Source: Escherichia phage EPFV3-03/2025
Strand: one strand, 5' to 3'
Length of the DNA stretch: 64,000 nucleotides
Sequence record: PV435126.1
Shown here in pieces: positions 1,208 through 54,234 of this stretch. The notes below the pieces were generated by a model. That model saw only the letters and a program-made list of their open reading frames with translations, ran no database searches and was not told the origin of the DNA. Numbering within the stretch: the first letter of the stretch is position 1; every line of letters starts with the position of its first letter. The position numbers and the translations under genes are program-made.

Positions 1208-2938
1208 TTATATTATGTCATATATTATTAACTTGTCAATTGTCACCTTGCTAATTGTTTTCATGCAAACGAATGTCATGGCTTATCATCTCTGTGTAAA
1301 CTGTCAATGTGTAAACAGTCTACGCAGGAACAATCTATACGTGAACAGTGAAACATGAAATAATAACAGTCGTTATTGTGTCGAAAGTGTCGTATTGTGT
1401 GACATTGTGTCAGACAAGTTTTTCTCCTCTTTGTCAAGTGCTGCATGGAAAATTTACAATCTGGTATGGTAGCATTTTTGCGGCCCCGTTTACATGCATG
1501 AGTGTATGTATAATCCTTGTTGTGTGGGCGTTTAGACGTCTGGACGGTCAGAAGTCCGCAGGTTAATATCTAATCTATTGGTCGCTAACTATATCCACCA
1601 CAAATAATAAGAAATACAATTGTTATATTCGTAAACAGTAACCCATGTTATCAATCCCTGTATGTATCGCCAGTGGTGCGCATAATGGGTATTATGTTAA
1701 ATTGCCCGTAATGATAACGATTCTCACAATGATAAGTATTCTCATTCATCCACACAAAATAGCTTGCAAATGTTGTGCCACTGTGTGAACGGCCTCGCCT
1801 ATTAATTTGCCTCACTGCCCCGATATTTGAGAATTGTTATAAGAATGAGAAGTATTCCCATTCCGTCCGCCTGGCAGCACTCCAGTCGCTACCGGCTCCT
1901 GACAGGGTAGCACTCCTGTAGGACAAGCACAAAATCTGGGCATAACTGGACCTGTTCAGATATTTCTGGCTGACTCTTCAGGTCTGTGTGGGAAAAGCCA
2001 ACCTCTCCGGCGGGGCAGGGGGGGTCTGCATGGCAGATTTCACCTGGAGCGAAACCCTTAAGGGTAAGATGGGGTGGTATTACAGGAAAAATTGCAGGTC
2101 AATTAAAAAATTTACGTGGTGTATGAAGCCCTCTTCAGGCAGGGCGTGTATTATGGGATGAAACCCTCTTCAGGTGATGATATTTGTGGGTGTGATATTT
2201 GCTGGAAAGCCAGATATGACGGGGCTCCCGGCGGGGATGGGGTAGTACAGGCAGGGAAAATGTGGGGATGTGGTGTGGTAAATTGATCAGGCAGGTAGGA
2301 TATGGAATATGTTACAAGTATGTTAAATATGGAGGTAGGATATTTGTAAGATTTGTGTGTAAAATCAAATACTTATGTGGTGTTGTGGTATTTTCTATAA
2401 ATAATTCAAGTTTAATAGGTGATATTTGTCTCCATCTACTTTGTGTGGTAAACAGATTCTAATTGAATTGGTTTACAAGTGTATATAAAGTATACAAATT
2501 AAAGATATAAGAAACCCCCCTCCCCCCTTCGGCTACCATTCACCTTTTCCTCTGACTGGTACTTAAACACTTATTCAGACTCTTCAGGTTATCACCCATA
2601 TATCATATGGCAGTGACTGGTGTCCTCCGGCCCCTCTTTCGTCACCCGTCCGCTTCGCCATGCTAATGCCATAGCTAACTGTTCGGTTGTTCACCCTGTT
2701 CACTCAGGTGTATCTCCATACCCCTTCAAACCGAAGAGAACAGAAAACCCGAATTACTCGGTAAAAGAAAAGAGAAGAACTTAATTTTATCAGGATAGGC
2801 AAGAATGTCAAGGCATGACTGCTCACTAAACAAGCAAACAGTCATGTGTGGGAGGTAAGTGATTGTGGTGGTAGGAAATTTAGTTGAAAGATGTGTTATA
2901 GGTGCTTCCAGCACTTTAGCCTGGCAGCTAATTGTGTG

Positions 2939-3154
2939 TCAGTCCAGCGGTTCATCCTCTACTTCACTGAAATCAATGTTCATGGTCTCTTCCCAACCAT
3001 CGATCTCAGCACAAGAGTGGAGTTCTTTAGGGTTTACTCCCAAAGCCTCAGCAACAGAGTCTATATTTAACACCTCTGGCAGGTATGATTCATCGAATTC
3101 AAGGTAAATCAGGCCACGAGTGTTGTCAGCTCCACCAAATATTTCTATCTTCAT
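2939..3154 (-). CDS. hypothetical small acidic protein
   Basis: 71-aa ORF starting MKIEI; last gene of the minus-strand block. Confidence 0.45.
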   Translation of the reverse strand: MKIEIFGGADNTRGLIYLEFDESYLPEVLNIDSVAEALGVNPKELHSCAEIDGWEETMNIDFSEVEDEPLD

Positions 3155-3274
3155 AAAATCTCCTCTGGGAATGAGAGTGTGAACAGGATTATACGTTCCA
3201 ATGCACTGGAATTTATATACGTTTGCCTCTTCAGGCCATGCTTTAGCATGATAAACTTGTGTGGGCTCGGTGCT

Positions 3275-3610
3275 TCATAGTCTGCCACCTCTGAACTCTT
3301 CGTTCTCAGGCATGATAGAGAACCAGATGGCTATGATGTCCTCCCACGTCAGGTCATCAGCCTCAGGGTCCACCTGGGACGGAGATAGAGAATCCTCAGA
3401 ATTGAAGTTTTTCTCTGCGGTCGCTTCTTCAGATGTCTCTTTAGGTGCATGTGTGTTGGTCATGTTCCACCCGTGAGTATTCCGGCAACAGCCGCTATGG
3501 ACGTAATGATCATCAGGATCACCACCAAAACCTCGGACAATGTTTTCATTGCGTATTCCATATTCTTCAAACGATGTGAGGATACTATCACAGGAGCTGT
3601 AATGTGTCAA
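3275..3610 (-). CDS. hypothetical protein
   Basis: 111-aa ORF; start uncertain (a promoter-like motif overlaps the first codons). Confidence 0.4.
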   Translation of the reverse strand: MTHYSSCDSILTSFEEYGIRNENIVRGFGGDPDDHYVHSGCCRNTHGWNMTNTHAPKETSEEATAEKNFNSEDSLSPSQVDPEADDLTWEDIIAIWFSIMPENEEFRGGRL

Positions 3611-3771
3611 CAGAAACGCCGCGAGGGTTGGTTAAAATCCGAGCGTATGGTGATTTGGGTCAAAACGGACGTGCGTTCTCGCTACGCTCGAAATAGAGAG
3701 TTGTTTGTAAGCAGCTCTTAAACGCTCTGTAATGATATTAACTACCTAAGGTATGGAATCGTGCACCAGAT

Positions 3772-3797
3772 AAAGAAAAGGACGCCACAGAGCGTCC
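3772..3797 (-). terminator. rho-independent terminator (minus strand)
   Basis: ggacgc/gcgtcc hairpin with T-run on the minus strand, just downstream of the gene ending at 3823. Confidence 0.5.
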
Positions 3798-3822
3798 TAG
3801 GTGCCTTAAATTTGATATTTTG

Positions 3823-4134
3823 CTATACCCATGAGGGCTTGTCTAGGTTGGAGTAGCTGAAGGGGGTCAAAAGGTGACTGTCAAAATCTTTCAAACTGTC
3901 CAAGTCTTTTTCCTCGTCCTGACACCATCTGTGCCTGCATTTATTGTTGTAGTGCATGGAATGCATAGCGTTCTGCAACTTAACAGGTACAAGTGATTCA
4001 GGAGTAGATAGAATTGTTGGGTATGCCAGGACTATCTCAAACAATGGAAACACATCGAAACTGAAGTCTATTTCTGCTGAGGTTGCTGGCATATAGGAGT
4101 ATTTAGCTGTCGTTGTAGACATAATCCACCTCAC
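3823..4134 (-). CDS. hypothetical protein
   Basis: 103-aa ORF, abuts the next gene. Confidence 0.5.
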   Translation of the reverse strand: MRWIMSTTTAKYSYMPATSAEIDFSFDVFPLFEIVLAYPTILSTPESLVPVKLQNAMHSMHYNNKCRHRWCQDEEKDLDSLKDFDSHLLTPFSYSNLDKPSWV

Positions 4135-14359: not shown

Positions 14360-14644
14360 CTACCAGGTTACTGTCAAGTAGGCAACCGTGTTATTTTTCT
14401 CCGGAGAGATGCCAACAACATCCACCTGCAGACCTCCTGCCCTCAAATCCCCAACGATGTGTGGGAAGTAGTCTGAGAGGTGCGATGGGAGATTTATCGA
14501 AAATCCGCATCCCAGAAAGCCTGCTAACGCTTTATTTTGTATCTCCCCTACAATCGCATCATAAATGGAGTTAAGCTCGTCAGGGAGCGTTACAGGGCGT
14601 TTTAGCGCTAACTGGTGCAACTTGTCCTTAGCACTCATTTTCAT
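14360..14644 (-). CDS. hypothetical protein
   Basis: ORF 14360..14713 trimmed to internal start MKMSAKDK, which abuts the upstream stop. Confidence 0.45.
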   Translation of the reverse strand: MKMSAKDKLHQLALKRPVTLPDELNSIYDAIVGEIQNKALAGFLGCGFSINLPSHLSDYFPHIVGDLRAGGLQVDVVGISPEKNNTVAYLTVTW

Positions 14645-15174
14645 TTCAGGTCTACCTCTGGAGGTGCCAACCACATAAATGGCGGCAGGTCTAAACGGTT
14701 CTTCTTGTCCCACACAAAATATGCATATGCTTGCCCGTCAGTTCTGCCATTTGATTGGAATGATGGACGCTTAGATATTGTGATCACAGTGGTAGGTGCA
14801 TTATCAAGCCACCATTCAAATCTGGCTTTGCTTTCCAGAAAATTAAGACGCAAAAGCATAATAACTACGTCAGCATCTTTCAACGCCTTGTCTACAAACT
14901 CACGAGCCAGGCTGTACGGTGGGTTGGTGATAATACAGTCAACATGGTTGTATTCTGTATTCAGATAGTCAACACCTTCTTGGATTTCTCCCCATGCAGA
15001 TCCTAACGGCATACGGGAGTAGAACACACCTGAGGCGCTATTTCTGCAAGGCTCTAGGTAGGTCCAGTCTTCTGGGAACGGAATAAGGTCATACAGCCCT
15101 TCTGCACACCACTCCGGTGTCACATACTCGTCGTAAGCGTTACGTTGTTCATCAGGTTTTCTAGCACAAGTCAT
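14641..15174 (-). CDS. DNA methyltransferase (amino-methyltransferase, NPPY motif)
   Basis: 177 aa containing IITNPPYS, the motif IV of N6-adenine/N4-cytosine methyltransferases. Confidence 0.7.
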   Translation of the reverse strand: MTCARKPDEQRNAYDEYVTPEWCAEGLYDLIPFPEDWTYLEPCRNSASGVFYSRMPLGSAWGEIQEGVDYLNTEYNHVDCIITNPPYSLAREFVDKALKDADVVIMLLRLNFLESKARFEWWLDNAPTTVITISKRPSFQSNGRTDGQAYAYFVWDKKNRLDLPPFMWLAPPEVDLK

Positions 15175-15190
15175 GCAAATCTCCAGATCA

Positions 15191-15214
15191 TAAAAGCCCT
15201 CCGAAGAGGGCTTT
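15191..15214 (-). terminator. hairpin terminator (minus strand)
   Basis: gccctc/gagggc stem with cgaa loop flanked by A/T runs, downstream of the gene ending at 15226. Confidence 0.5.
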
Positions 15215-15225
15215 AGAATTAATGT

Positions 15226-16275
15226 TTAAGCTTCTTCGACAATTCCTGCACCCAGGATTTTTTCATTGAGCTCTTTTGCTGTTTTAATAATATTGTCCAC
15301 CAGACGCTTGCGGGTCTTATCTTTAACCTGAACTTCTTCACCTCCGTTCAGGGTGGTTTTCAATTGGGACAAAATGTCCTGAAGCTCTACCACAGAGAAT
15401 CGCTGCAGATCTTCCGAGGTAATCTCACCAAGTGCAATCTTAACGGTCTCACCGCTCTCCATCTGTAGATTCAGGAACACAGTGTGAACATCACCTTTCA
15501 CACCATTTGCTTTTGCAGACTCAACAGCATGAACCAGCTCGTCCAGAGATGTGCATTGGTGAATCTCTGGCAGGCCTGCTTCACCTAGCACACCTTCTTC
15601 ATCACTTTTTGCCAAAAGCTTTTTCGGTTTCTGTCCATTCTGAATGCGCTGAATGTTTTCATCGTCCAGAATGATAGCACCAGTTCGAGATGCCAGCTCT
15701 TCTCCATCTAACCACACTTCGCCACCAGCTGTGATGGATGCGATTTCATCTTCTGTTAACACCCCACCGTAGTATTTTTCAATCAGGCGTTCAAAACGTT
15801 TCTTCCAGTAGTTGATCTGGGTATTCATGTTCACACCGTTACCATAGGTGCCACCTTGATAGTAGTGGAACATAAATTCTGTGTCCGGAGCTACAGTTCG
15901 TTCTTTGCAACCCAGCCATAAGATTGTTCCTGCCGAGCAGCACATCCCTTCAGCGTGTACAACAACGCTTGCCTGAGACTCGCGGAATGCCTGCAAATAC
16001 GCCATAGCAATGTGAACGCAACCACCGGGGCTGTTAATGATTACACGGATACTTTCTTCTGGCTGTGCCATACGAATTGTTTGCAAACGGGACATATGAT
16101 CCTGCAAATCTTCAAGATCGTCAATATAAAGAACGTGGTCAACAACAGGTGTTGGGTAGCTGTATGTTTCCATAATACCACCCGGCATACCAAACATTTT
16201 GTTACTCATAGGTTCGAAACCGTTCTGTTTTTCTTTCATGCCGTGTACCATGGTGCTGCGAGGTGTTAAATTCAT
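15226..16275 (-). CDS. ClpP-like serine protease with C-terminal extension
   Basis: 349 aa; INSPGGCVHIAMAYLQ...HAEGMCCSAGTILW resembles the ClpP/S14 core; about 150 extra C-terminal residues. Confidence 0.7.
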   Translation of the reverse strand: MNLTPRSTMVHGMKEKQNGFEPMSNKMFGMPGGIMETYSYPTPVVDHVLYIDDLEDLQDHMSRLQTIRMAQPEESIRVIINSPGGCVHIAMAYLQAFRESQASVVVHAEGMCCSAGTILWLGCKERTVAPDTEFMFHYYQGGTYGNGVNMNTQINYWKKRFERLIEKYYGGVLTEDEIASITAGGEVWLDGEELASRTGAIILDDENIQRIQNGQKPKKLLAKSDEEGVLGEAGLPEIHQCTSLDELVHAVESAKANGVKGDVHTVFLNLQMESGETVKIALGEITSEDLQRFSVVELQDILSQLKTTLNGGEEVQVKDKTRKRLVDNIIKTAKELNEKILGAGIVEEA

Positions 16276-16335: not shown

Positions 16336-16695
16336 TTATTTAGCAATCACTATAGAATACTTACGATTGTCAGAAGCATCACAGCTCAATGATTGCCAGT
16401 CTACCACATACCACGTATCATTGTCAACAATTACTTTATCGCCTGTTCTGTAGCAGGTGCTGCTTTCAATAATCCTAGACTCGATAAAGAATCTGTGTCG
16501 GCGCTCACGTAGCAACGCTAAGTTGATTATATTACCACCACTGTCCTTGGTCCACACATTCTTGGATCCTTTATTTGCCAAAATTGTCTCGCCGTTATAT
16601 ACAAACAGGCAGTATATTTTATTCAGTCTCTCTTGTATTGTAGCCATACTGTGTCCTTCTCCTTGTTTTGTCCAATAATAATATCTAAAGCTCAC
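16336..16695 (-). CDS. hypothetical protein
   Basis: 119-aa ORF; TTGACA-N17-TATTAT promoter-like motif upstream. Confidence 0.45.
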   Translation of the reverse strand: MSFRYYYWTKQGEGHSMATIQERLNKIYCLFVYNGETILANKGSKNVWTKDSGGNIINLALLRERRHRFFIESRIIESSTCYRTGDKVIVDNDTWYVVDWQSLSCDASDNRKYSIVIAK

Positions 16696-16750
16696 CTGTT
16701 TGTCAACAACTGTTTTAGATATTTAAGGGTGGAATAACCACCCTTCTGTA

Positions 16751-17539
16751 TTACTCGGAAACAGGAGTCCAAATATGATTTGCACGATCCTCAATAAGAT
16801 TGAGTGCAATCTGACGGCCTAACCCGGAACGAACGACATCGTCTGGACTATCAAAGCTAATCATTCCAACCTCAGGATCTGGATGACGCGTAAAGAAATC
16901 TGTCACCCATGCAAGGCCAGATTTACCAGGGATGTCACGTTGGCTGTTATCGCCCATAATTACAAGGGTGGCCTGATCAGAGATCCTTGTGATAATTGAC
17001 AACATTTCTTCAGGATTGGTTTGCTGTGCTTCATCAATAAGGACAAAGCATCGTTCATCAAAACTACGACCACGAATGCTTTCAACCTCACAAATCTCGA
17101 TACGGCTGTTCTGACCGTCCCCAAGCATTGCTGCAAAAGCACCTTTGCCAACACGACGACAAATCGTGTCCATCATGCTTCTAAGATAGGGCCACAGTTT
17201 CTGCATTGCATTTCCAGGTTTAAATCCTGAAGTCTTTCCTGTCTGAACGTAAGGGCGTGCAACAATGATCTTATCAATCTCGTTCTTGCGCAGAAGATCC
17301 CCCGCATATGCAGATGCCATGAATGTCTTACCGGATCCAAACACACCGTTTACAATGATAATCTTACGCGACCCTAGATAATCAAGATACTTTTGCTGCT
17401 TTTTATTCATTGGTCGGAGAGCTGGAGCGGTGTGCTCTCGTTCGTCAGCAAATTTTTCAGCAGCCTTACGCAGGCGATCAGATTTGCGAGCCTCTCTAGC
17501 TTCATCACGCATGCGTTTTGTTTCTTTAGCTCGACCCAT
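16751..17539 (-). CDS. phoH: PhoH-like ATPase
   Basis: 262 aa; Walker A GVFGSGKT and overall PhoH-like organisation. Confidence 0.85.
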   Translation of the reverse strand: MGRAKETKRMRDEAREARKSDRLRKAAEKFADEREHTAPALRPMNKKQQKYLDYLGSRKIIIVNGVFGSGKTFMASAYAGDLLRKNEIDKIIVARPYVQTGKTSGFKPGNAMQKLWPYLRSMMDTICRRVGKGAFAAMLGDGQNSRIEICEVESIRGRSFDERCFVLIDEAQQTNPEEMLSIITRISDQATLVIMGDNSQRDIPGKSGLAWVTDFFTRHPDPEVGMISFDSPDDVVRSGLGRQIALNLIEDRANHIWTPVSE

Positions 17540-18750: not shown

Positions 18751-19713
18751 TCAGCAACCACAACTTCCGTAGTGCTTAACCCGTTCTATAACCTCCGCTT
18801 GCTTACCTTTATTGTAAGGACGAGAGTTTGGACTGGACAGATACCCGGATACGCGTCTGATCACACTGATCGTTCCTTCTTCATGGTTTCCACATTCTGG
18901 GCATACAAAGCCTTTAGCTGTTGCACTGAACTCACCAGAGAATCCACACTTAAGACATTTATCCACAGGCTGGTTAATACCAAAATACATAATGTGTTTA
19001 TATCCGAAATCAACAAGAGCTTCCAAAGCATCTAAGTTGTTTTTCAGATTTGGTGTCTCTATGTACCCAATGTTGCCACCAGAGGAGATCATAGCAAAAC
19101 CTTCCTCATACTTCCACTTATCAAAAGGCGAGCTATTGATCCATACTGGCTGATGGAAACTGTTGGTGAGGTATTCATGCTCGTGCTTCAACACTTCTGG
19201 GTATTCACGATCCAGACAGGTTGCAGCTTTATAGCATAAACTCTCAGAAGGTGTGCCGTACAAGCTAAATGCTAGTCCACTTTCCTTCTTGTATCGCTCA
19301 CAAGCATCTTTCATGTGCTGAAGGATTCCAAGAGCTAAAGCCTTGTCACCCTCTCTGCCCAAAATCTGACAGGTTTCATACACACCAATATACCCAATAC
19401 TGATGGAAGCGTACCCGTCATAGAAGAGTTTATCGATACTCTCTTCAGGATCCAGGCGAGCAAGAGCTCCTTCACACCACATGATAGGGTTCTGCCCTGC
19501 CTTTGTTCCTTTTAGACGGTTAACCCTTACAAGGTGAGCCTCATATGCCAAATCCAAATATTCGTCAAGAACTGCAAAGAAATCAACACCTTCCGTTTTA
19601 GCTTTTGCCGCAATCATTGGTAGGTTAAGGCTAACAACACCCAAGTTGAATCTGCCAAGGTATTTCTCCTCGCCTGTTACAGGGTCGCTATATTTCGATA
19701 AGAAACTTCTACA
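18751..19713 (-). CDS. nrdD: anaerobic ribonucleotide reductase, exon 2
   Basis: Begins at CRSFLS; C-terminal glycyl-radical motif RVSGY and cysteine tail CGC. Confidence 0.8.
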   Translation of the reverse strand, partial: CRSFLSKYSDPVTGEEKYLGRFNLGVVSLNLPMIAAKAKTEGVDFFAVLDEYLDLAYEAHLVRVNRLKGTKAGQNPIMWCEGALARLDPEESIDKLFYDGYASISIGYIGVYETCQILGREGDKALALGILQHMKDACERYKKESGLAFSLYGTPSESLCYKAATCLDREYPEVLKHEHEYLTNSFHQPVWINSSPFDKWKYEEGFAMISSGGNIGYIETPNLKNNLDALEALVDFGYKHIMYFGINQPVDKCLKCGFSGEFSATAKGFVCPECGNHEEGTISVIRRVSGYLSSPNSRPYNKGKQAEVIERVKHYGSCGC

Positions 19714-20475
19714 CATTATGTTCAAGGTGGTTCGCAAGGCCACCCCCGCACCTTTACGTGCTGCTGCATGTCCCCATGCAGATCAGACTATATCTTCACA
19801 CTTAGTGTGTCTACCATTTCGAGTGTCATCAGCTTACACCCTACACCGCTACATTCATCACGGTTAGTCGTTAGGCATTTCGTAACAGAACTCGTAATCA
19901 TAGTTATTAGGTGCACCACGTTTCAGGATAGCAGATATTCTTTTTCTATCTATTCCTAAAACATCAGCACAACATCTCAGACTCTTAAAGTGAATAACCA
20001 CACCAGTTAATTTGTGGGTGGCTTTCACCCCGTGACATCTTGTGTAAAAAGCATAACAGTTGTTGTCGTATCCTTCTTGAGTATTGTCTGGGCAAGCTCC
20101 CCACTCAAGGTTGTATACGCTGTTATCTTTCCTGTTGTCACCTTTGTGCTTAACATATGGTAAATTGTCTGGATTTGGTAAAAACGCTTCAGCAACAAGT
20201 CTGTGAACCCTTAGGCAAACAGTCTTTTTGTTCTTGCGTATCCTGACAAGACGGTAACCTGTGTTTATCTCTTCCCACGAATGAATAATTCTTTCATTTT
20301 CGTATCGGGTGCAATAAACATTGCCCATCTCGTCAATTTCATAACCTTCAAAATCACGAATTTGTTTTCTCATTTCAGGACTCCTCTTAGTCAGGAGTTC
20401 TGTTACGTTTAGCACGGGATTGTCCGTTCTGGAGTTTCCCCGTTTAGATAGATTTTACATGAGCAGTTATAGTTT
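19714..20475 (-). mobile_element. candidate group I intron in nrdD carrying an HNH homing endonuclease
   Basis: nrdD reading frame is interrupted; exon 1 ends in U (..atgggt) and the intervening sequence ends in G before tgt(Cys); free-standing HNH ORF inside; same arrangement as the T4 nrdD intron. Confidence 0.6.
19864..20415 (-). CDS. HNH homing endonuclease
   Basis: 183 aa; VHRLVAEAFLPNP...KHKGDNRKDNSVYNLEWG, typical HNH_3-type motif. Confidence 0.8.
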   Translation of the reverse strand: MLNVTELLTKRSPEMRKQIRDFEGYEIDEMGNVYCTRYENERIIHSWEEINTGYRLVRIRKNKKTVCLRVHRLVAEAFLPNPDNLPYVKHKGDNRKDNSVYNLEWGACPDNTQEGYDNNCYAFYTRCHGVKATHKLTGVVIHFKSLRCCADVLGIDRKRISAILKRGAPNNYDYEFCYEMPND

Positions 20476-21636
20476 ACCCATGCTTGTTACTTTGCCGTCT
20501 GTTGAACCTGTCACTTTACGATTCAGCGGAACAGAAACAAAGTCAGGATAAATCCGCTCTGCAGAACATTCTAGAGCCAATCGTTTCAAATCGTAGTTAG
20601 GATCCCCAGGGTTCATGTTGACACCCTCCTCTAAGAAGAACAGCACTTTAGGGAACACAGGTGTGATCCGTTCTTCACCAAGACCCATTTTGTGAACTTT
20701 CAAGTAGTTTTTGGTAATCATTCTACCAAAGACCGAGGTATCTAGCCCTAAACTTAATGTGATGAATGGAGTTTGCCCGTTGACAGAAGTTAACGTATTG
20801 ATTTGGTAGAGCAAAGTTTGCATACTATCAAACACGTCTTTATCTGTCATTTGCATTGCAACAGTCTCAGCATCTGGCAACCAATGTTCCTGACAAAATT
20901 TAAGGTTCTTCTCGTAGGTTGCTTCAGCATACTGTGCCAGATAATGATCAATATGGCTCATGGTCTGACCACCATATTGAGCACTAGCTACTGCACTAGA
21001 GATTTGGCTAAGGATTGTTGTTGCAACCCCTATTGACTTCGGCTTACTGACATGGGCGTTGCCAATGTTGAATCCGTTTTCCAGCATATCCGGATAATTT
21101 ACCAAACAACAGTTTGTTAACGGACTGATCAGGTAGTCAAGATCATGCACATGGATGAAGCCTTTGTTGTGCTCTTCGGAGACACGGTCTGGCAGGATCT
21201 GTGTTGATGCAAGATGTTTGCTAAGGATTCCTGCAAGCAGGTCACGATGAGTGTGTACATGATTAGTAGGCTTATTTGCGTTTTCTTTTGTAAATTCATC
21301 ACAAGTACGATCCAAGAAGCCGCTAATATCTGCAAGCAGTTTTCCACCTGCCTCTCTGTTATTATCCCTTGTCTGTCTATACTGGATGTATTCTCTGGCT
21401 GCACATTTTAAACCCATATCCATAAGAGCATCTTCAACAAGGATATGGATATTTTTTACAGAGATCGTGCACTGGTCAGTTGGCAGATTGTTGGCAACAA
21501 CTTCATTAACCGCACAGGCAATCCGGTAAGCTTCTTCTTCAGTATGTCCAGACTCAAGTAAGGCGGACTCTGCCGCCTTGATCACCTTAATTCCGTTATA
21601 AAACTCTTCTCTACCGTCCCGTTTTACAACTTTCAC
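20476..21636 (-). CDS. nrdD: anaerobic ribonucleotide reductase, exon 1
   Basis: N-terminal ATP-cone-like start MKVVKRDGREEFYNGIKV and GFIHVHDLD region; ends ..VTSMG. Confidence 0.8.
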
Positions 21637-45379: not shown

Positions 45380-45425
45380 CCTTTAGTTATACTTTAAATA
45401 TATACACACAAAAGGAACCTTTAAA

Positions 45426-45695
45426 ATGTATACACTTAAAATTGTAGAGCGTGTAAATCCAACCCATACTGTAGATTTTCGTGACGATTTCAACCCTCTT
45501 GCTGTAAATCTTCGAGAGTCGTATCATGAACTAAGCTGCGATGCAGTTGTGGTCTTCTTTGAAGACAACTCTGAAGGGGCAGTGGCTTGTGTTGTTGATA
45601 GCGAGCAGAAGTTTTATATTTACAGAGATGTGGATGCTTACTTGATGAATGAGAATGCGGTTACTGTCAGAATCATCCACCGAGTGCCTCGATAA
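45426..45695 (+). CDS. hypothetical protein
   Basis: 89-aa ORF after the tRNA cluster. Confidence 0.45.
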   Translation: MYTLKIVERVNPTHTVDFRDDFNPLAVNLRESYHELSCDAVVVFFEDNSEGAVACVVDSEQKFYIYRDVDAYLMNENAVTVRIIHRVPR

Positions 45696-45751
45696 GTATT
45701 AGTCTCCTTTTAGTTAGTTTCGATCTATTTAGGTTACTCAATTTTAACCCG

Positions 45752-45783
45752 CCCCGTTAGCTGTATAGCTGCGGGGTTTTTTC
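45752..45783 (+). terminator. rho-independent terminator
   Basis: GC-rich hairpin ccccg..cgggg followed by TTTTTT. Confidence 0.6.
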
Positions 45784-45800
45784 GTTTCTGGAGCCTTAAA

Positions 45801-46199
45801 ATGATTTCAGTTTTAACATTGATGAGTAAATACAGAGGGATCATAAAAGGTTTAGTTTTTGCAGCTGCTCTAGGCACAGCATACTTGGGGGCCGTGTATT
45901 GGTTTAACTCTAAGCTCAACGCTGCTTATCAGGAAGGCGTAACAGCAACAGAGTTAAAGTGGGAACGGATCCTTGACCAGCAACAAAAGCAGGCCGACAA
46001 AATTAAAATGGGCCACGCAGAGGAGGTTAAAAACCTTGAAAAATCTCTTTCTGACCTACAGGATAAATTAAATATGGCTGAGAAGGCAGGTAAAGAAAAG
46101 CAGATTATCTACCTCCAATCACCTGAAGGTAAGAAGTCAACACTCCCTGACCAGCTTATAGATATCTATAATGAGAGCATTAATCAGGAGGGCAGATGA
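45801..46199 (+). CDS. i-spanin (Rz-like)
   Basis: 132 aa; N-terminal TM LVFAAALGTAYLGAVYWF followed by coiled-coil-like region; stop overlaps the o-spanin start. Confidence 0.6.
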   Translation: MISVLTLMSKYRGIIKGLVFAAALGTAYLGAVYWFNSKLNAAYQEGVTATELKWERILDQQQKQADKIKMGHAEEVKNLEKSLSDLQDKLNMAEKAGKEKQIIYLQSPEGKKSTLPDQLIDIYNESINQEGR

Positions 46200-46483
46200 G
46201 AGCCACCGTATTATTAGTTGCTTGCTTGCTGCTGTGCGGGTGTGCGACAAGTGTCGAAAAAGAATACAAGATTGACCCTCCGGATGTAGGAAGGTTGATT
46301 GTTAAACCTCCCGAGGGTGCTATGAAACCACCTGCTAAAGCTATCCCTTTGAAGAAAGGTGCGCCAGATGCGGTGAATTCTGGCATTATGAGGGATAATA
46401 ACCTGTCTTGTAGTAATGATAGAGCTAAATTGATCATTTTGCAAGACTATATAAGAACACTGTTTCCAAAGGAGAGAGGTTAA
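46196..46483 (+). CDS. o-spanin (Rz1-like lipoprotein)
   Basis: 95 aa; signal plus lipobox-like LLLCGCA, proline-rich mature region. Confidence 0.65.
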   Translation: MRATVLLVACLLLCGCATSVEKEYKIDPPDVGRLIVKPPEGAMKPPAKAIPLKKGAPDAVNSGIMRDNNLSCSNDRAKLIILQDYIRTLFPKERG

Positions 46484-48030
46484 TGTCTAAGATTTACGGA
46501 CCGTGTTCTGAAAAGCAGAAGATGATCCTTGAGAACGATGCAGATATTTTGGTGATCGGAGGTGCAGCAGGTTCTGGCAAGTCGTTCCTCTTGCAGCTAA
46601 TGCCACTTAAAATTATTGATGACCCACACAGCTCTGTGGTTATGTTCCGAAGAACAACTCCACAGTTGGAAGGTGAGGGTGGGCTATGGCCTAAAGCAGT
46701 AGCTATTTACAGTGATCTGCCTGAAAACATTAAACCAAAGTTCAGAGAGAAGGATCATAAGTTTATTTTTCCACGGTTTGATCCGAGCACTGGCAAGTGG
46801 GACAGGAGCAAAAAAGGGGCCGTTGTAAAATACTGCCACATGGAGTATGTCCAAGATAAGCTTAACCATCAAGGCCTTGAGTACACCATGGTTTGCTTCG
46901 ATGAAGGCACGCAATTCGAATGGGAGCAGATAGACTATTTGATGTCTCGTCTGCGATCTCAGTCAAAGTATCCATCAAGAATGGTTATCAGTTGTAACCC
47001 CGACTCAGAACACATGCTTGCCAAACTGGTTAGGTGGTGGTTGGACGATGAAGGGTATCCAGATCCGGAGAAATGTGGTAAGAAAAGATATTTTATCCGA
47101 CGCGACGGTGAGTTTATCTGGGGAGACTCTAAAGAGGAGTTAATAGAGAAATACACCACGGTTAACGGACTGGGTGTGGAGATCAAGCCAAGACCGTTGT
47201 CATTCTCGTTTATAGGTGCAACAATTTTCGATAATCCTGTCTGCTTGAGAGACAACCCAGAATACCTTGCTTTCCTTGAAGGTCTACCAGAGCTTGAAAA
47301 AGCCCAGCTTCTTCATGGCAACTGGTTTGCCAAACCTGAGGGTGCAAACTATTTCCAAAGATCTTTCCTTCGTGATGCCGATAGAGTACCTCTTGGATCA
47401 GTATCTTGCAGGGCATGGGATAAGGCAGGAACCGAGAGAACTTCCGGTAATAAATTTCCTGACTTTACTGCCAGTGTTAAGGTAAGTAAAGATAGCGACG
47501 GTTTTTATTACCTGTCCGGGGATTATTGTCCTGAGAACGTGGATGACGGTAGGTATTCCACAGGTCTGGAAGGTAAGTTCTGTAAAAAGGCTGGGGAACG
47601 AGATGTGATCATCAGGAAACAGGCGCAGTTTGATGGAGATGATTGCATAATCGTATTTTCTGTGGACCCCGGTCAGGCAGGTAAGAGTGAGTTCTTAACC
47701 TCGTCCAGATCCTTGCTCGCCGAAGGGTTCAGGGTTGAAGAAGATCCGATGCCTTCCAACAAATCTAAACTGACAAGGTTCTCACCTTTTGCCAATCTTG
47801 CCCAACAAGGAATGGTGAGGATTGTAAAATCCAGTTTCCATCCTGACACTCTGGAAGCATTTCTGACTGAACTTGAAAAGTTCAACGGGGAAAGATCAAC
47901 ATTTAACAGAAAAGACGACTGGGCCGACTGTGTAGCTTCTGCGATTAATTTCTTGGAGAAAGAGGAGGTAGCACTGCCTTGTGTGATTCCATCAATCTCA
48001 TCACCTTCTATGTTCAAGCGTTTTATCTAA
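46483..48030 (+). CDS. terminase large subunit
   Basis: 515 aa; Walker A VIGGAAGSGKS, Walker B-like MVCFDEG; followed by the portal gene. Confidence 0.85.
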   Translation: MSKIYGPCSEKQKMILENDADILVIGGAAGSGKSFLLQLMPLKIIDDPHSSVVMFRRTTPQLEGEGGLWPKAVAIYSDLPENIKPKFREKDHKFIFPRFDPSTGKWDRSKKGAVVKYCHMEYVQDKLNHQGLEYTMVCFDEGTQFEWEQIDYLMSRLRSQSKYPSRMVISCNPDSEHMLAKLVRWWLDDEGYPDPEKCGKKRYFIRRDGEFIWGDSKEELIEKYTTVNGLGVEIKPRPLSFSFIGATIFDNPVCLRDNPEYLAFLEGLPELEKAQLLHGNWFAKPEGANYFQRSFLRDADRVPLGSVSCRAWDKAGTERTSGNKFPDFTASVKVSKDSDGFYYLSGDYCPENVDDGRYSTGLEGKFCKKAGERDVIIRKQAQFDGDDCIIVFSVDPGQAGKSEFLTSSRSLLAEGFRVEEDPMPSNKSKLTRFSPFANLAQQGMVRIVKSSFHPDTLEAFLTELEKFNGERSTFNRKDDWADCVASAINFLEKEEVALPCVIPSISSPSMFKRFI

Positions 48031-48132: not shown

Positions 48133-49689
48133 GTGTCCAAAAAGAACCGCAGGAAACACAACGCCACAGCCAAAACTGTGAATAAATCTGGGAACGCAGG
48201 CGCACCAACTCATAATGTTCGTATGAGTGAGATCGGTTCTGGCGCACTTTCCCAAATTATGGCAGAATCACAATCTATGATGGTTGAGGAATTGCGTTGG
48301 CCTCAGCTGATTGCCACAGTGGAGACTATGAAATGTGATTCCACAGTTGCTACTGCCTTAGATACAAAATATGTTTTCATCACGAAAGCATTTAATGATT
48401 TTAAGATCCTTTATAATGTTAAAAGTGAAGACTCTAAGAAAGCTGCCGAGCTTATAGAGTATTCTTTGCGTAATTTGGCAAACCAGCAAACTCTTCGAGA
48501 TATTGCAAGAAGCGCAGCTACCTTTAACGAGTATGGTTTTTCACTGTTTGAGAAAGTATACCGCAGAGAGAAAGAAGGTAAATATGCCGGGATGCTTCTT
48601 ATTGATAAAATTGCATTCCGACCTCAGGCCAGTTTGTCCAGATCAGAGCCGTTTGTCTTTGACAAGAATAGTAGAACACTGACAGGTATTTATCAATCAC
48701 CTAATGCATTTCTAAACACGCAGAATGCACGCTGGGCTGGCCCTCTTGCTGCAATGCCTTCAAAAGGCTTTAATGAGCCTGAAATTTTCATCCCTGCCAA
48801 GAAGCTTATGCTCATGACCTTGTCAGGAACAGAGTCTAATCCTGCAGGTGTGTCACCGATGATAGGTTGCTACAGATCTTTCCGTGAGAAAGTTCTGATT
48901 GAAAACCTTGAGGTTGTTGGCTGCTCCAAAGACCTTGGTGGTGTGCTTGAGCTGAAAATTCCTTCCAATATTCTGAACAAGGCCAGCATTGACCCGAATT
49001 CAATGGAAGGGAGAATGGTTGCAGATCTTATGCTTGACGCAGCAAATGCCCACAGTGGGGAGCAAAGTTTCTTTATACTTCCGTCTGATAGAGATAAGTC
49101 TGGTAAAGAGCTTTACTCCATGACCCTGAAGGGGGTTGACGGCATGGGTAAGCAGTATTCCACTAAAGATTTGATTGATGCCCGTAAGAAGGCGATTCTT
49201 GACCGTTTCGGTGCTGGCTTTATTAACCTCGGTAACGATAACGTTGGATCCTTCTCTCTGTCTGAGTCAAAACAATCTATCCATGGTCATTTTGTTCAGC
49301 GTGATATAGATATTATCACTGAGGCCTTCAATAAAGATCTTATTCCACAGCTTCTGGCATTGAATGGTATCATCCTTGAAGATGATGATATGCCTAAACT
49401 GAAACCTGGTCTGATTGAAGAAGTGGACATGGAGAGCTTCTCCAAGTTTGTCCAGAGGATCGGTGCTGTAGGTTACTTGCCAAAAACTCCTGCAGTAATT
49501 AATAAGATTCTTGAAGTAGGCGGGTTTGATGAAAGATTTGACGAAGACATGGATCAGGAAGAGCTGATGAAGCTCTTGGGCCAGGATATCAGCAGGGCTG
49601 GTGATGGTATGGCTGCAGGATCCACTGGCAACGGCACTTCTAAGATGTCATCAACCAGAGATAATTCCATATCTAACATGGAAAATTAA
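48133..49689 (+). CDS. portal protein (by position and size)
   Basis: 518-aa ORF, GTG start, immediately after the large terminase. Confidence 0.6.
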   Translation: MSKKNRRKHNATAKTVNKSGNAGAPTHNVRMSEIGSGALSQIMAESQSMMVEELRWPQLIATVETMKCDSTVATALDTKYVFITKAFNDFKILYNVKSEDSKKAAELIEYSLRNLANQQTLRDIARSAATFNEYGFSLFEKVYRREKEGKYAGMLLIDKIAFRPQASLSRSEPFVFDKNSRTLTGIYQSPNAFLNTQNARWAGPLAAMPSKGFNEPEIFIPAKKLMLMTLSGTESNPAGVSPMIGCYRSFREKVLIENLEVVGCSKDLGGVLELKIPSNILNKASIDPNSMEGRMVADLMLDAANAHSGEQSFFILPSDRDKSGKELYSMTLKGVDGMGKQYSTKDLIDARKKAILDRFGAGFINLGNDNVGSFSLSESKQSIHGHFVQRDIDIITEAFNKDLIPQLLALNGIILEDDDMPKLKPGLIEEVDMESFSKFVQRIGAVGYLPKTPAVINKILEVGGFDERFDEDMDQEELMKLLGQDISRAGDGMAAGSTGNGTSKMSSTRDNSISNMEN

Positions 49690-49744
49690 AAATTATCAAC
49701 ACAGGGGGTTGCAAAACCTCCTTTGGCGTGATAAAATAATCCAC

Positions 49745-50176
49745 ATGGGGAATAAGATGCCACAGGAAGAAATGATTTCCTACGAAATCATCTACGAACC
49801 TGACACTAAAGATGCTCACGGTGAGTGGATGAGTAAAGACACCATCAAAAAGGCTAAAGATAACTGGGACGCAGCATACGCCGCAGGCCTAGTTTCTGAA
49901 AACCTTTTTCACTTGACCTCTACAGATGCTTTCACCATTGAAAAGACGTGGATTCAAGAAGAGTTTGATGTTGTAGTGATTGGCACTGAGCAGGTCATCA
50001 AGGCTGGCTCTTGGGTTGCTAAAGTTAAATACAATAATCCTGAATTATGGGAAGCTAAGAAGGCTGGCATTGTTGGTGGCCTAAGCATTCAGGCAACAGG
50101 TAATGTTGATGAAGAGACTGGTGAAATTACCAACGTAAACTTCGGAATCAGTGTTGTAGAAGAGGGCAATGAATAA
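49745..50176 (+). CDS. hypothetical head-module protein
   Basis: ORF 49601..50176 trimmed to a start beyond the portal stop. Confidence 0.4.
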   Translation: MGNKMPQEEMISYEIIYEPDTKDAHGEWMSKDTIKKAKDNWDAAYAAGLVSENLFHLTSTDAFTIEKTWIQEEFDVVVIGTEQVIKAGSWVAKVKYNNPELWEAKKAGIVGGLSIQATGNVDEETGEITNVNFGISVVEEGNE

Positions 50177-51153
50177 TGTCTGAAAAAACGATTACTATTA
50201 AAGAGAAGGGGATTGCCCTGTGCCATAAGGCGCAAGGCTATAGCGCTAACAACAGACCTGTATCTCTTTTGATGAAGAGTGATCTTCAGCCTGAGCAGTT
50301 AACAGAAGATATTGTTAAGGCACTTCGCCAAGTTACTGTGGAGCTTAGTTTTGAAGAATACCTGCGTCGTTTCTTCGATATGTGGTATGACGATGCCAAG
50401 GCACTTGCACACATGCTTGGTTTTGAGGTTGAAGAGGAAGCTTGGGCTAAAGAGCATCCTGATTGGGAATGGGCGCAAGCTGACGCAGAGTCTTGTATTG
50501 CATGGCTGGAAGAGCGTTGTGATAACGTGACCATTCATAAAGCTGCAAAAGAAGGCAAGCAGCTTAGTGTGGTAGATCAGTACAGCCTGTTAAAAACACA
50601 ACAGATTTTTGAACAAGTAACCGCTGATCTCTTCGATAAAGAAGGGAACCTGATCAAGGCGGTACAGGAACCTACTGAGGTAGATAAAACTACCGAGGTG
50701 GATGATGTTGCAAAATCCGCAAATACCGAGGAGAATCCGGTGGACGTAACCAAAACTAAAGAGTATCTGGATCTGCTGAAGCAAGTAGAAGAGCTGAAAG
50801 CAACCCAGAGTAAAGCTGAAGAAATCATCAAGGCCCAGGTTGAAGTTGAAAAAGCTAAAATGCTGACTAAAGCTCAAGCTTTAAGCTTTGTTGGTGAAGA
50901 AGATCATGCAACCCTGGTTGACTTCATGCTGGAAAAAGCTAACGAACCTATTGTAGCTATGCTGGAGAAAGCTCAAGCCAAAATTGAAGAGCTGGAAGCA
51001 GAGGTGCATAAAACCAAAGAAGAGTTTGCCACCACTGAACATGGTAATGATGGCGAACCTGTTGTGGATGATATTGCAAAATCCGCAGAAGAAATTCTTG
51101 CTGAAAACGTTGCAAAAGCACTTGCTCGTGCACGTGCAGAATCTACCAAATAA
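50176..51153 (+). CDS. putative scaffolding protein
   Basis: 325 aa, acidic and helix-rich (EELKATQSKAEEIIKAQVEVEKAK); between portal and capsid genes. Confidence 0.5.
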   Translation: MSEKTITIKEKGIALCHKAQGYSANNRPVSLLMKSDLQPEQLTEDIVKALRQVTVELSFEEYLRRFFDMWYDDAKALAHMLGFEVEEEAWAKEHPDWEWAQADAESCIAWLEERCDNVTIHKAAKEGKQLSVVDQYSLLKTQQIFEQVTADLFDKEGNLIKAVQEPTEVDKTTEVDDVAKSANTEENPVDVTKTKEYLDLLKQVEELKATQSKAEEIIKAQVEVEKAKMLTKAQALSFVGEEDHATLVDFMLEKANEPIVAMLEKAQAKIEELEAEVHKTKEEFATTEHGNDGEPVVDDIAKSAEEILAENVAKALARARAESTK

Positions 51154-51611: not shown

Positions 51612-52622
51612 ATGATTACTCGTAAAGATGAATTTGGCATTGTTGATTTAGGTGCTACTCTGGACCTTGTTCCGCGTCAATTTCGCCTGATCACTGGTAT
51701 GGATCTGTTCGAAACCCGTCTCGGCACCTCAACAATTGCTCAGATCGAGCGTGTTGATGAAGTTGTAACCGACATTCCGGCACGCCGTCGTGGTGGTGAG
51801 CGTAACTACGTTGGTAGTGAACGTGCTCAGGTTAAAAACCTGAACATCCCGTTCTTCCCTCTGGACAAAGGCATCACTGCCGCAGATGTTCAGAACTTCC
51901 GTCGTTACTTCACCCCTGATGCTCCGAAAACTGTTCAGGACGTAGTAACCCGCGTTGTTCGCCGTATCCGTGTTTCTCATGAAGCACTGCGTGAGAAAGC
52001 GCTGTTCCAGGCTATTCTGGGTAAATCCTATGCACCGGGTGACACAACCTGTCAGTATGACTATTACACTCTGTGGGGTGTGACTCAGAAGTCTGTTGAG
52101 ATTGACCCTGCAAAAGCAGATCAGGATCCTATGGAGGTTCTGGAAGAAGCTCGTCTGCACATCGCACTGCAAGCTGGTGATAACGCAGCTGGCTATCGTA
52201 TTGTAGCTCTGTGCTCACCAGAGTTCTTCAGCGCTATTACCCATCACCCGCTGGTAGAACTGGCATACACCTACTACGGCTCTGCTCAGGAACCTCTGCG
52301 TCGCCGTCTGGGTGCTGGCGGTCAAGACAGCGTATACCGTGTGTTTGAACATAAAGGTATCACCTTTATCGAAGATATCTCTGGCAATATTCCTAAGAAA
52401 GAAGCTCGCATTCTGCCGATGGGTATTGATCAGATGTTCCAGCTGCACTTTGCTCCGGCAGATGATGTTAACGAAGCAAACACCCCAGCACAGGAACTGT
52501 ACATGTGGTATAAACACTCTGCATACCTGCGTGAAGAGAAGATTGAATCTGAAACTTCCATGCTGGCAGTTAACACCCGTCCAGAGCTGGTTGTTAAAGT
52601 AACTCTGAAAAACGGTGGCTAA
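51612..52622 (+). CDS. putative major capsid protein
   Basis: 336 aa; position in head module; codon usage strongly biased (ctg, cgt, ggt); followed by a strong terminator. Confidence 0.6.
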   Translation: MITRKDEFGIVDLGATLDLVPRQFRLITGMDLFETRLGTSTIAQIERVDEVVTDIPARRRGGERNYVGSERAQVKNLNIPFFPLDKGITAADVQNFRRYFTPDAPKTVQDVVTRVVRRIRVSHEALREKALFQAILGKSYAPGDTTCQYDYYTLWGVTQKSVEIDPAKADQDPMEVLEEARLHIALQAGDNAAGYRIVALCSPEFFSAITHHPLVELAYTYYGSAQEPLRRRLGAGGQDSVYRVFEHKGITFIEDISGNIPKKEARILPMGIDQMFQLHFAPADDVNEANTPAQELYMWYKHSAYLREEKIESETSMLAVNTRPELVVKVTLKNGG

Positions 52623-54205: not shown

Positions 54206-54234
54206 TTGCTTTTGATGTATCTTTGTGGTAAAAT
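54206..54234 (+). promoter_or_regulatory. sigma70-like promoter
   Basis: TTGCTT-N17-TGgTAAAAT; the -10 context tggtaaaatac is shared with the promoter at 57727. Confidence 0.45.

Follow-up and report, generated by a model that had tools for sequence, protein, structure and literature searches.

Does the ClpP-like gene found among the early and metabolic genes of an E. coli phage encode the proteolytic subunit of an ATP-dependent Clp protease, as the labels of its relatives say, a protease of capsid maturation, or a peptidase of another kind? This question was addressed in a 64,000-nucleotide stretch of DNA from Escherichia phage EPFV3-03/2025 (sequence record PV435126.1; the whole stretch is referred to below as the window). 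The gene is located as follows:

15226..16275 (-), ClpP-like peptidase gene, 349 amino acids plus stop codon, ortholog of rV5 gp122

The open reading frame (ORF) starts with ATG and has an AAGGA Shine-Dalgarno sequence 5' of the start. The protein is quite likely an active peptidase with the ClpP fold, and a different enzyme from the prohead protease of the phage. With a confidence slightly better than even, we favor the fuller reading that it is an early or middle cytoplasmic peptidase, which would work without the Clp ATPases of the host, have no part in capsid maturation and use its C-terminal domain for specificity or regulation.

The label "ATP-dependent Clp protease proteolytic subunit" is routinely given to a gene that occurs in hundreds of large lytic phages; examples are ICP1 (a cholera phage), Pakpunavirus, T5-like and T4-like vibriophages, and those Vequintavirinae that serve in phage therapy and biocontrol. 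The evidence described below suggests that this label misleads, for the Vequintavirinae branch at any rate. Should the enzyme prove to be a protease that acts early and on chosen targets, proteolysis would join the known means of phage host takeover or counter-defence; if it were a peptide-recycling enzyme, it would be an ordinary accessory gene. In either case the gain is a corrected annotation and a defined orphan domain.

The window belongs to a Vequintavirus, an rV5-like (FV3-like) phage of E. coli. The DNA of the gene is 92-98% identical to its counterparts in over 100 E. coli myophages of the rV5/FV3-like Vequintavirus group, which are labelled "ClpP-like protease", "ClpP ATP-dependent protease subunit" or "ATP-dependent protease"; the last label is that of the copy of phage HMD-6, with 97.9% nucleotide identity. 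The protein matches PHROG 5410, 'ATP-dependent protease', over the full length of the profile (E=9.2e-155; amino acids 24-345 against positions 4-322 of 323), and its amino acids 59-168 match the Pfam family CLP_protease (PF00574; E=5.7e-13, 49.6 bits, cut-off 20.2). Since gp122 of rV5 (349 amino acids) has been annotated as "ClpP (ATP-dependent) protease subunit" since 2013 (Table S3 of PMC3606486), the gene itself is not new. It is a catalogued variant of a known enzyme family; the useful results are the evidence against the "ATP-dependent" label and the definition of the orphan domain. No functional, transcriptomic, essentiality or substrate data for free-standing phage ClpP-like genes were found in the literature, where papers repeat the annotation or call such genes metabolic or "auxiliary", and some presume a prohead protease without evidence. 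Clp and Lon are not mentioned in the host-gene screen with the V5-like phage LL12, nor is the ClpP-like gene in the transcriptome papers on PAK_P3 and PAK_P4, and a CRISPRi-ART study in Vequintavirus EdH4 targeted only the genes for the MCP (major capsid protein) and for rII.

To describe the protein, an AlphaFold2 monomer model was built from a 17-sequence alignment of the Vequintavirinae-like family. Model confidence is given as predicted local distance difference test (pLDDT) values. The following parts were distinguished:

16147..16275 (-), N-terminal region, amino acids 1-43, predicted to be disordered (pLDDT 30-40)
15616..16146 (-), ClpP-fold catalytic core, amino acids 44-220 (pLDDT >90)
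15934-15936 (-), codon of the catalytic Ser114
15865-15867 (-), codon of the catalytic His137
15718-15720 (-), codon of Glu186, at the third triad position
15493..15615 (-), flexible linker, amino acids 221-261, poorly conserved, net acidic, low confidence
15247..15492 (-), orphan C-terminal domain, amino acids 262-343, a beta-hairpin plus three helices

When the core was compared with the PDB by Foldseek, the top 50 matches were all ClpP, with target-normalised template-modelling scores of 0.61-0.71 over 153-173 aligned columns (17-24% identity, E about 1e-9). The ClpP-type core had been proposed in the initial annotation on the strength of an SPGG motif and a CCSAG serine context, and both could be located (amino acids 82-85 and 112-116, respectively). 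The similarity to ClpP stops near amino acids 197-200, leaving about 150 C-terminal residues, as had also been proposed. With bacterial ClpP (MEROPS S14; PDB 1TYF/1YG6) the core shares the alpha/beta fold, the SPGG oxyanion loop, the catalytic Ser and His in the same motifs and a Gly-rich handle motif after the His, which here reads H-x2-QGG-x2-G. It differs from E. coli ClpP, to which it is about 20% identical, by Glu in place of Asp171, Gly in place of Arg170, a polar docking pocket, an unrelated disordered N-terminus and the extra linker and orphan domain of about 150 amino acids. The N-terminal region has a conserved N25/G29 'FG-MPG' motif which, in the alignment and when mapped onto E. 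coli ClpP, is unlike the ClpP axial loops.

Conservation of the catalytic residues was counted in 24 sequences, the 17 family members and seven free-standing homologs from phages that are more distant (phiTE, ICP1, Barbavirus, a T4-like Vibrio phage, a T5-like Klebsiella phage, Pakpunavirus and a Schitoviridae vibriophage). Of the Ser-His-Asp triad, for which the initial annotation had proposed an alignment to ClpP, two members stood: Ser114 and His137 are invariant, as is the oxyanion Gly85 (24/24 each). The third did not, because the position of ClpP Asp171 is occupied by Glu186 in the window protein and by Glu also in phiTE and Pakpunavirus, by Gln in most other Vequintavirinae-like members (Seunavirus-like, Hena1-like) and in Barbavirus, and by Asp in ICP1 and three other distant homologs. 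Since Ser114, His137 and Gly85 are invariant, the enzyme is predicted to be active; as judged from these alignments it is very probably a catalytically competent ClpP-fold serine peptidase whose triad is not strictly Ser-His-Asp. Assignment to the S49/SppA peptidases (lambda gpC-type, Ser-Lys dyad) was rejected: Pfam S49 gave no match at E up to 1, and the invariant His sits at the position of ClpP His122, which speaks against a Ser-Lys dyad.

An ATP-dependent Clp protease needs a docking site for its ATPase. The pocket residues by which E. coli ClpP binds ClpA and ClpX were taken from a cryo-electron microscopy study of ClpAP (bioRxiv 10.1101/820209) and were mapped onto the phage protein by an alignment in which the SPGG and catalytic-Ser motifs served as anchors; invariance refers to the 17 family members.

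E. coli Tyr60 corresponds to Arg77, invariant
E. coli Tyr62 corresponds to Ile79, Ile or Val in the family
E. coli Phe82 corresponds to Glu99, invariant
E. coli Ile90 corresponds to His107, invariant
E. coli Met92 corresponds to Glu109, invariant
E. coli Phe112 corresponds to Thr127, invariant
E. coli Leu114 corresponds to Ala129, Ala or Ser in the family

Thus five of the seven pocket positions that could be aligned carry a charged or polar residue throughout the family, and a hydrophobic pocket that would accept the IGF/LGF loops of ClpX, ClpA or ClpC is not predicted. The inter-ring sensor Arg170, next to the catalytic Asp, is replaced by the invariant Gly185, and the N-terminal axial-loop sequence of ClpP is not recognisable. 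None of the NCBIfam ClpP models came near its cut-off (scores of 41 bits or less, with cut-offs of 228-361; 33.5 against 308.6 for TIGR00493 and 41.3 against 228 for PRK12553, the best ClpP model). The "ATP-dependent" label is doubtful because of the charged and polar pocket positions, and filing the Vequintavirinae branch under canonical ATP-dependent ClpP is, on this comparison, probably wrong.

These observations bear directly on the possibility that the protein is an alternative core which docks host ClpX or ClpA, or a phage AAA+ ATPase, to form a phage-specific ATP-dependent protease. This would agree with ClpP being the best structural and Pfam match, with the retained handle motif, and with the ClpP-ClpX pair encoded by megaphage G, which indicates that some phages use complete Clp systems. 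A candidate ATPase could be seen in rV5 gp4 (rV5 2920-4104; 394 amino acids), a MoxR-type protein and the only AAA+ ATPase in the rV5 gene table; it is distant from the ClpP-like gene and not linked to it, and MoxR proteins are not known to be partners of ClpP. Neither the annotated neighbourhood nor the rV5 gene table contains a ClpX- or ClpA-like gene. With the pocket invariantly charged or polar at most positions, the axial-loop region not conserved and predicted to be disordered, and the scores far under every ClpP cut-off, we regard an alternative ATP-dependent core as quite unlikely.

The same residues were considered with regard to a poison or decoy subunit, which would join or compete with host ClpP and thereby disable ClpXP and ClpAP, for instance so that antitoxins are not degraded or phage proteins are not turned over. 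Phages do inhibit host proteases, as exemplified by T4 PinA acting against Lon, and mixed rings lacking part of the docking pocket would be defective in ATPase binding. A pure decoy, however, would not need the Ser, His and oxyanion Gly that are invariant here, and co-assembly with host ClpP is unlikely at an identity of only about 20%. Both the decoy itself and the aims suggested for it are therefore highly improbable.

The C-terminal extension also distinguishes the phage protein from ClpP. Its structure prediction, which the initial annotation had proposed, showed amino acids 222-242 as disordered (pLDDT <50) and amino acids 243-343 as a separate small domain (pLDDT 73-92) consisting of the beta-hairpin and helices, for which no fold match was found. 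The linker is barely alignable across the family (0-67% identity), and the sequence of its helix (amino acids 244-257) is shared, among the 17 aligned sequences, by just the window protein and the three that are closest to it. Within the family the C-terminal domain has diverged at two to three times the rate of the core (15-61% versus 56-77% identity). Three of its residues, F293, E297 and R322, are invariant and look like structural core residues.

Searches with the extension returned the family itself. With amino acids 240-349 as query, tblastn gave matches only in Vequintavirinae, and a profile of the C-terminal domain detected no homologs outside the family among 1.84 billion representative proteins: its seven matches were five family members or fragments and two long repeat proteins with repeat-inflated scores. 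Similarity to scaffold proteins was not detected in the sequence and profile searches. As far as these searches reach, the domain is confined to Vequintavirinae-like phages. Other members of the free-standing family (PHROGs 5410 and 1827; rV5 gp122, ICP1 GP211, Pakpunavirus ORF46, Barbavirus gp072 and the T5-like and T4-like vibriophage homologs) have different C-termini. The Pakpunavirus, T5-like and Schitoviridae homologs have no tail or a short one, and the tail is charged in those of Barbavirus and of D483, a T4-like Vibrio phage. In ICP1 GP211 (326 amino acids, canonical Asp at the third triad position) there is a C-terminal part of about 150 amino acids whose hairpin-plus-helices pattern is similar by eye to the Vequintavirinae domain; BLASTP and hhalign aligned only the cores of the two proteins.

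Precedent for a regulatory role of a ClpP C-terminus is provided by ClpP1 of M. smegmatis, in which a C-terminal extension fills the docking pocket at the apical face and blocks docking of the ATPase (PMC6889138). The extension of M. smegmatis ClpP1 has about 12 residues and belongs to a canonical ClpP with an intact hydrophobic pocket, whereas the phage protein has about 150 residues with a folded domain, and a polar pocket.

The next question was whether the protein is the capsid-maturation protease. In the window the large terminase subunit (TerL), portal and MCP genes start at 46483, 48133 and 51612, respectively, on the opposite strand and 30-35 kb from the ClpP-like gene, in agreement with the early/metabolic location about 30 kb from the head module given in the initial annotation. 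The head module has the canonical order of portal, protease, scaffold, decoration and MCP:

48133-49689 (+), portal gene
49601..50176 (+), prohead protease gene, Peptidase_S78_2/XkdF type, between portal and putative scaffold
50176-51153, putative scaffold gene, 325 amino acids
51174-51563, decoration protein gene
51612-52622 (+), MCP gene

The protease slot is thus filled by an ORF that matches Pfam PF14550 (E=1.2e-17, 64.6 bits, cut-off 24) and PHROG 3017 'head maturation protease' (E=1.2e-13). As listed from a GTG codon, this ORF has its first 89 nt (49601-49689) in common with the end of the portal gene and its Pfam match begins only at amino acid 53, so its true start is probably further downstream.

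The virion proteomes of related phages point in the same direction. Mass spectrometry of Certrevirus CB7 particles detected the S78_2 ortholog CB7_5 (21 kDa) and no ClpP-like protein among 26 virion proteins (PMC7344957), and rV5 gp122 carries no mass spectrometry flag for the virion (PMC3606486). Two virion proteins were examined and discarded as possible ClpP-like proteins. One, rV5 gp133 ("one of the predominant virion proteins"), is an unrelated 151-amino acid protein with one predicted transmembrane domain; the other, CB7_55 (26.5 kDa), is encoded beside DNA polymerase genes and is the sole CB7 virion protein encoded outside the structural module (PMC7344957). In a 2026 structure paper on phi92 the capsid-region models comprise only MCP gp124, cement gp123 and portal gp120. 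The rV5 late-promoter motif TGGTAAAATA is confined to structural genes (Table S4 of PMC3606486), and its only exact copies in the window are at 54226 and 57747, in the structural module.

In the seven other lineages the homologs all lie outside the head modules, and the free-standing family shares, besides the core and the invariant Ser and His, a location among early, replication or nucleotide-metabolism genes, often beside PhoH and a Dam-like methylase. The gene contexts were as follows:

ICP1: NrdA-NrdB ... PhoH-x-x-GP211 ... ligase
phiTE: PhoH-NrdD-NrdG-x-x-ClpP-methyltransferase
Barbavirus: PhoH-ClpP-Dam
T4-like Vibrio jumbo phage: dihydrofolate reductase (DHFR)-ClpP-like-repair-helicase-NrdD
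T5-like Klebsiella phage: deoxynucleoside monophosphate (dNMP) kinase-ClpP-holin
Pakpunavirus: small early ORFs near ligase and dCMP deaminase
Schitoviridae vibriophage: apart from the capsid genes, divergent from packaging genes

Barbavirus and the freshwater phage P26059A are also reported to have a separate head peptidase. Orthologs inside a capsid module, which the initial annotation had named as the finding that would speak for a prohead protease, were not encountered; true capsid proteases occur only among remote homologs (Gordonia phages, D3, mEp460), which correspond to the core alone at <35% identity. Because the phage has its own S78 protease in the head slot, the gene is flanked by a sigma-70-type promoter and a terminator (see below), the protein is not listed in the virion proteomes of rV5 and CB7 and its homologs in seven other lineages lie outside the head modules, the conclusion that the ClpP-like protein is not the capsid-maturation protease is well supported, and the initial doubt about a prohead role was justified.

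A second protease of capsid or virion maturation, an exapted ClpP-type prohead protease directed to procapsids by its C-terminal domain, is a different proposition. After the family's own profile the closest ones are the ClpP-related head maturation proteases (NF045542; PHROGs 1684, 94, 2976 and 133), likewise phage-encoded ClpP-fold Ser/His enzymes, often with C-terminal additions. The best NCBIfam matches are NF045542 (E=3.2e-17) and the ClpP-like prohead protease/MCP fusion model NF045540, and the four PHROGs, all 'head maturation protease', match at E=1e-15 to 1e-23. It is a well-known design of prohead proteases that a helical module for targeting or scaffolding follows the protease at the C-terminus, and the distant homologs in the Gordonia, D3 and mEp460 phages act on capsids. 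However, the scores stay below the curated cut-offs (63 bits against 120 for NF045542 and 54.7 against 475 for NF045540), the C-terminal domain does not resemble scaffold proteins, and a gene that is 30 kb away from the head module and on the opposite strand, has early or middle genes around it and possesses a sigma-70-type promoter and its own terminator in place of a late promoter, would be oddly placed for such a role. The protein does not appear in the virion proteomes of rV5 and CB7, and the head module already has its S78 protease. T4-like phages normally carry a gp21-type prohead protease, and T4-like vibriophages keep the ClpP-like gene among replication genes. On balance a second maturation protease seems a rather poor candidate.

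The gene lies in a discrete two-gene unit (promoter, a 103-amino acid ORF, the ClpP-like gene, intrinsic terminator), which sits among nucleotide-metabolism genes. The unit and its neighbours on the same strand are:

16751..17539 (-), PhoH-like ATPase gene, upstream neighbour (NCBIfam PhoH, E=3.6e-40)
16721-16741 (-), perfect 8-bp hairpin AAGGGTGG-TTATT-CCACCCTT, directly after the PhoH stop codon, no T-run
16678..16706 (-), sigma-70-type promoter TTGACA-17-TATTAT, 11/12 matches in the promoter scan, equivalent to rV5 P121
16336..16647 (-), small ORF, 103 amino acids, PHROG 5456 (E=3.8e-39), equivalent to rV5 gp121
15190..15211 (-), intrinsic terminator GCCCTC-TTCG-GAGGGC-TTTTAT, immediately behind the ClpP-like stop codon, equivalent to rV5 t122
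14641..15174 (-), small NPPY-motif N6-adenine methyltransferase-like gene, conserved downstream neighbour

Both signals have counterparts in Table S4 of PMC3606486, where P121 is listed with a near-identical sequence (one spacer base different) and t122 with an identical sequence and -14.9 kcal/mol. The small ORF starts with ATG at 16647 behind an AAGGAG Shine-Dalgarno sequence. Its product, which gave no Pfam or PADLOC match, has an ortholog encoded upstream of the ClpP-like gene in Certrevirus phiTE; this true ortholog is phiTE_143 (E=2.3e-42), and phiTE_142 was dismissed as marginal (E=0.002). The 103-amino acid protein, co-transcribed with the protease, is a candidate adaptor, inhibitor or substrate. 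Within this ORF, about 250 nt upstream of the ClpP-like start, there is a weaker promoter-like site (TGGACC-17-TATAAT, 16526-16554 (-)), which overlaps a one-mismatch copy of the rV5 late motif, TGGTAATATA; it might give a second, differently timed protease transcript.

The methyltransferase-like product shows weak matches to Dam and EcoRI_methylase and is also annotated in DrSchubert. In phiTE its counterpart is directly downstream of the ClpP-like gene and 61% identical to that of the window, whereas the ClpP-like proteases of the two phages are only 29% identical. A neighbourhood of PhoH and nucleotide-metabolism genes was seen in the window, DrSchubert, phiTE, ICP1 and Barbavirus. The 8-bp hairpin, situated just ahead of the sigma-70-type promoter, and this promoter itself separate PhoH from the ClpP-like unit, making PhoH a separate transcription unit in the window. 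The grouping of PhoH, ClpP-like and Dam-like genes is read as a conserved early or middle "metabolism" neighbourhood and not as evidence for PhoH as the partner ATPase.

This neighbourhood could also be taken to indicate a bulk 'auxiliary metabolic' peptidase, which would release amino acids from host proteins and peptides and would be co-selected with PhoH and nucleotide salvage. That unrelated phages repeatedly have the gene as a neighbour of PhoH, Nrd, DHFR and dNMP-kinase genes is in accord with this, and so is the literature, in which phoH and clpP were termed auxiliary metabolic genes, without any test (PMC5964084). On the other hand PhoH and the ClpP-like gene are separate transcription units in the window, and the fast-evolving orphan domain suggests a specific interaction rather than bulk digestion. 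A ClpP chamber lacking an unfoldase degrades only peptides or unstructured proteins, and bulk proteolysis of folded host proteins is therefore unlikely. We consider such a bulk peptidase improbable.

The favored reading, an early or middle peptidase independent of Clp ATPases and of capsid maturation, can be put into the following scheme. Host RNA polymerase would transcribe the gene in the early or middle period of infection, and the protein would form ClpP-like rings that work in the cytoplasm without the host Clp ATPases. The C-terminus of ClpP emerges on the apical face of the ring, next to the docking pocket. In the phage enzyme the C-terminal domains, on linkers of about 40 residues, would leave the ring at this face, where an ATPase would otherwise dock, and seven tethered domains per ring would crown the surface normally held by the unfoldase. 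Their role there might be to recruit substrates, to gate them or to control entry to the pore. Likely substrates would be cytoplasmic host or early phage proteins or peptides, and cleavage could be either targeted (host or defence proteins) or bulk (amino-acid recycling).

Several observations weigh against this scheme. The pocket mapping is a sequence alignment at about 20% identity, although motif-anchored; an alternative docking mode may exist for some ATPase, and the MoxR-type gp4 of rV5 is a possible one. Gln, found at the third triad position in many relatives, is unusual for an efficient Ser-His-acid triad. The core scores higher with the NCBIfam model of 'ClpP-related head maturation protease' (63 bits) than with cellular ClpP (at most 41), so that it may have a capsid-related ancestry or role, and virion proteomics is a weak negative, as the mature particle has often lost its prohead protease. 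No experiment on a family member was found in the literature, and enzyme activity, the oligomeric state, the time of expression and the substrates are predictions.

A role against host or defence proteins, raised in the initial annotation, is speculation. In its most explicit form the enzyme would be an autonomous, ATPase-independent chamber whose orphan domains serve as receptors for one or a few host proteins early in infection, that is, a counter-defence or takeover protease, with the PHROG 5456 protein as adaptor or inhibitor. Such receptors could be directed at a sensor or effector of immunity, at a factor that stabilises antitoxins, or at a factor of the nucleoid or of translation. We regard this version, targets included, as doubtful. 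In the PADLOC search the protease had no meaningful similarity to known defence-system proteins.

Some further observations were made in the course of the analysis. The ClpP-like gene was also found in 18 unannotated 'Campylobacter phage' records (host C. jejuni) within MG065653-MG065690. These copies are about 96% identical in amino acid sequence to those of the E. coli Vequintavirus phages, and the records probably reflect host mis-assignment or contaminating coliphages.

In the head region, the large-terminase ORF (46483-48030 (+)) matches PHROG 979 only from profile position 147, so that the N-terminal part of the terminase is seemingly encoded elsewhere; the small ORFs upstream of it (45400-46483) gave no Pfam match. 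The rV5 terminase is reported to be split and intron-containing, and the terminase of the window fits this description.

The anaerobic ribonucleotide reductase gene nrdD is split in the window (18751-21636 (-)). One ORF (20467-21636) encodes the ATP-cone and NRDD profile positions 1-263, another (18751-19743) NRDD positions 263-562 and the glycyl-radical domain, and an HNH_3 endonuclease-like ORF (19864-20415) lies between the two halves. In DrSchubert nrdD is an uninterrupted gene of 1.9 kb, and the arrangement in the window looks like an intron or homing-endonuclease insertion.

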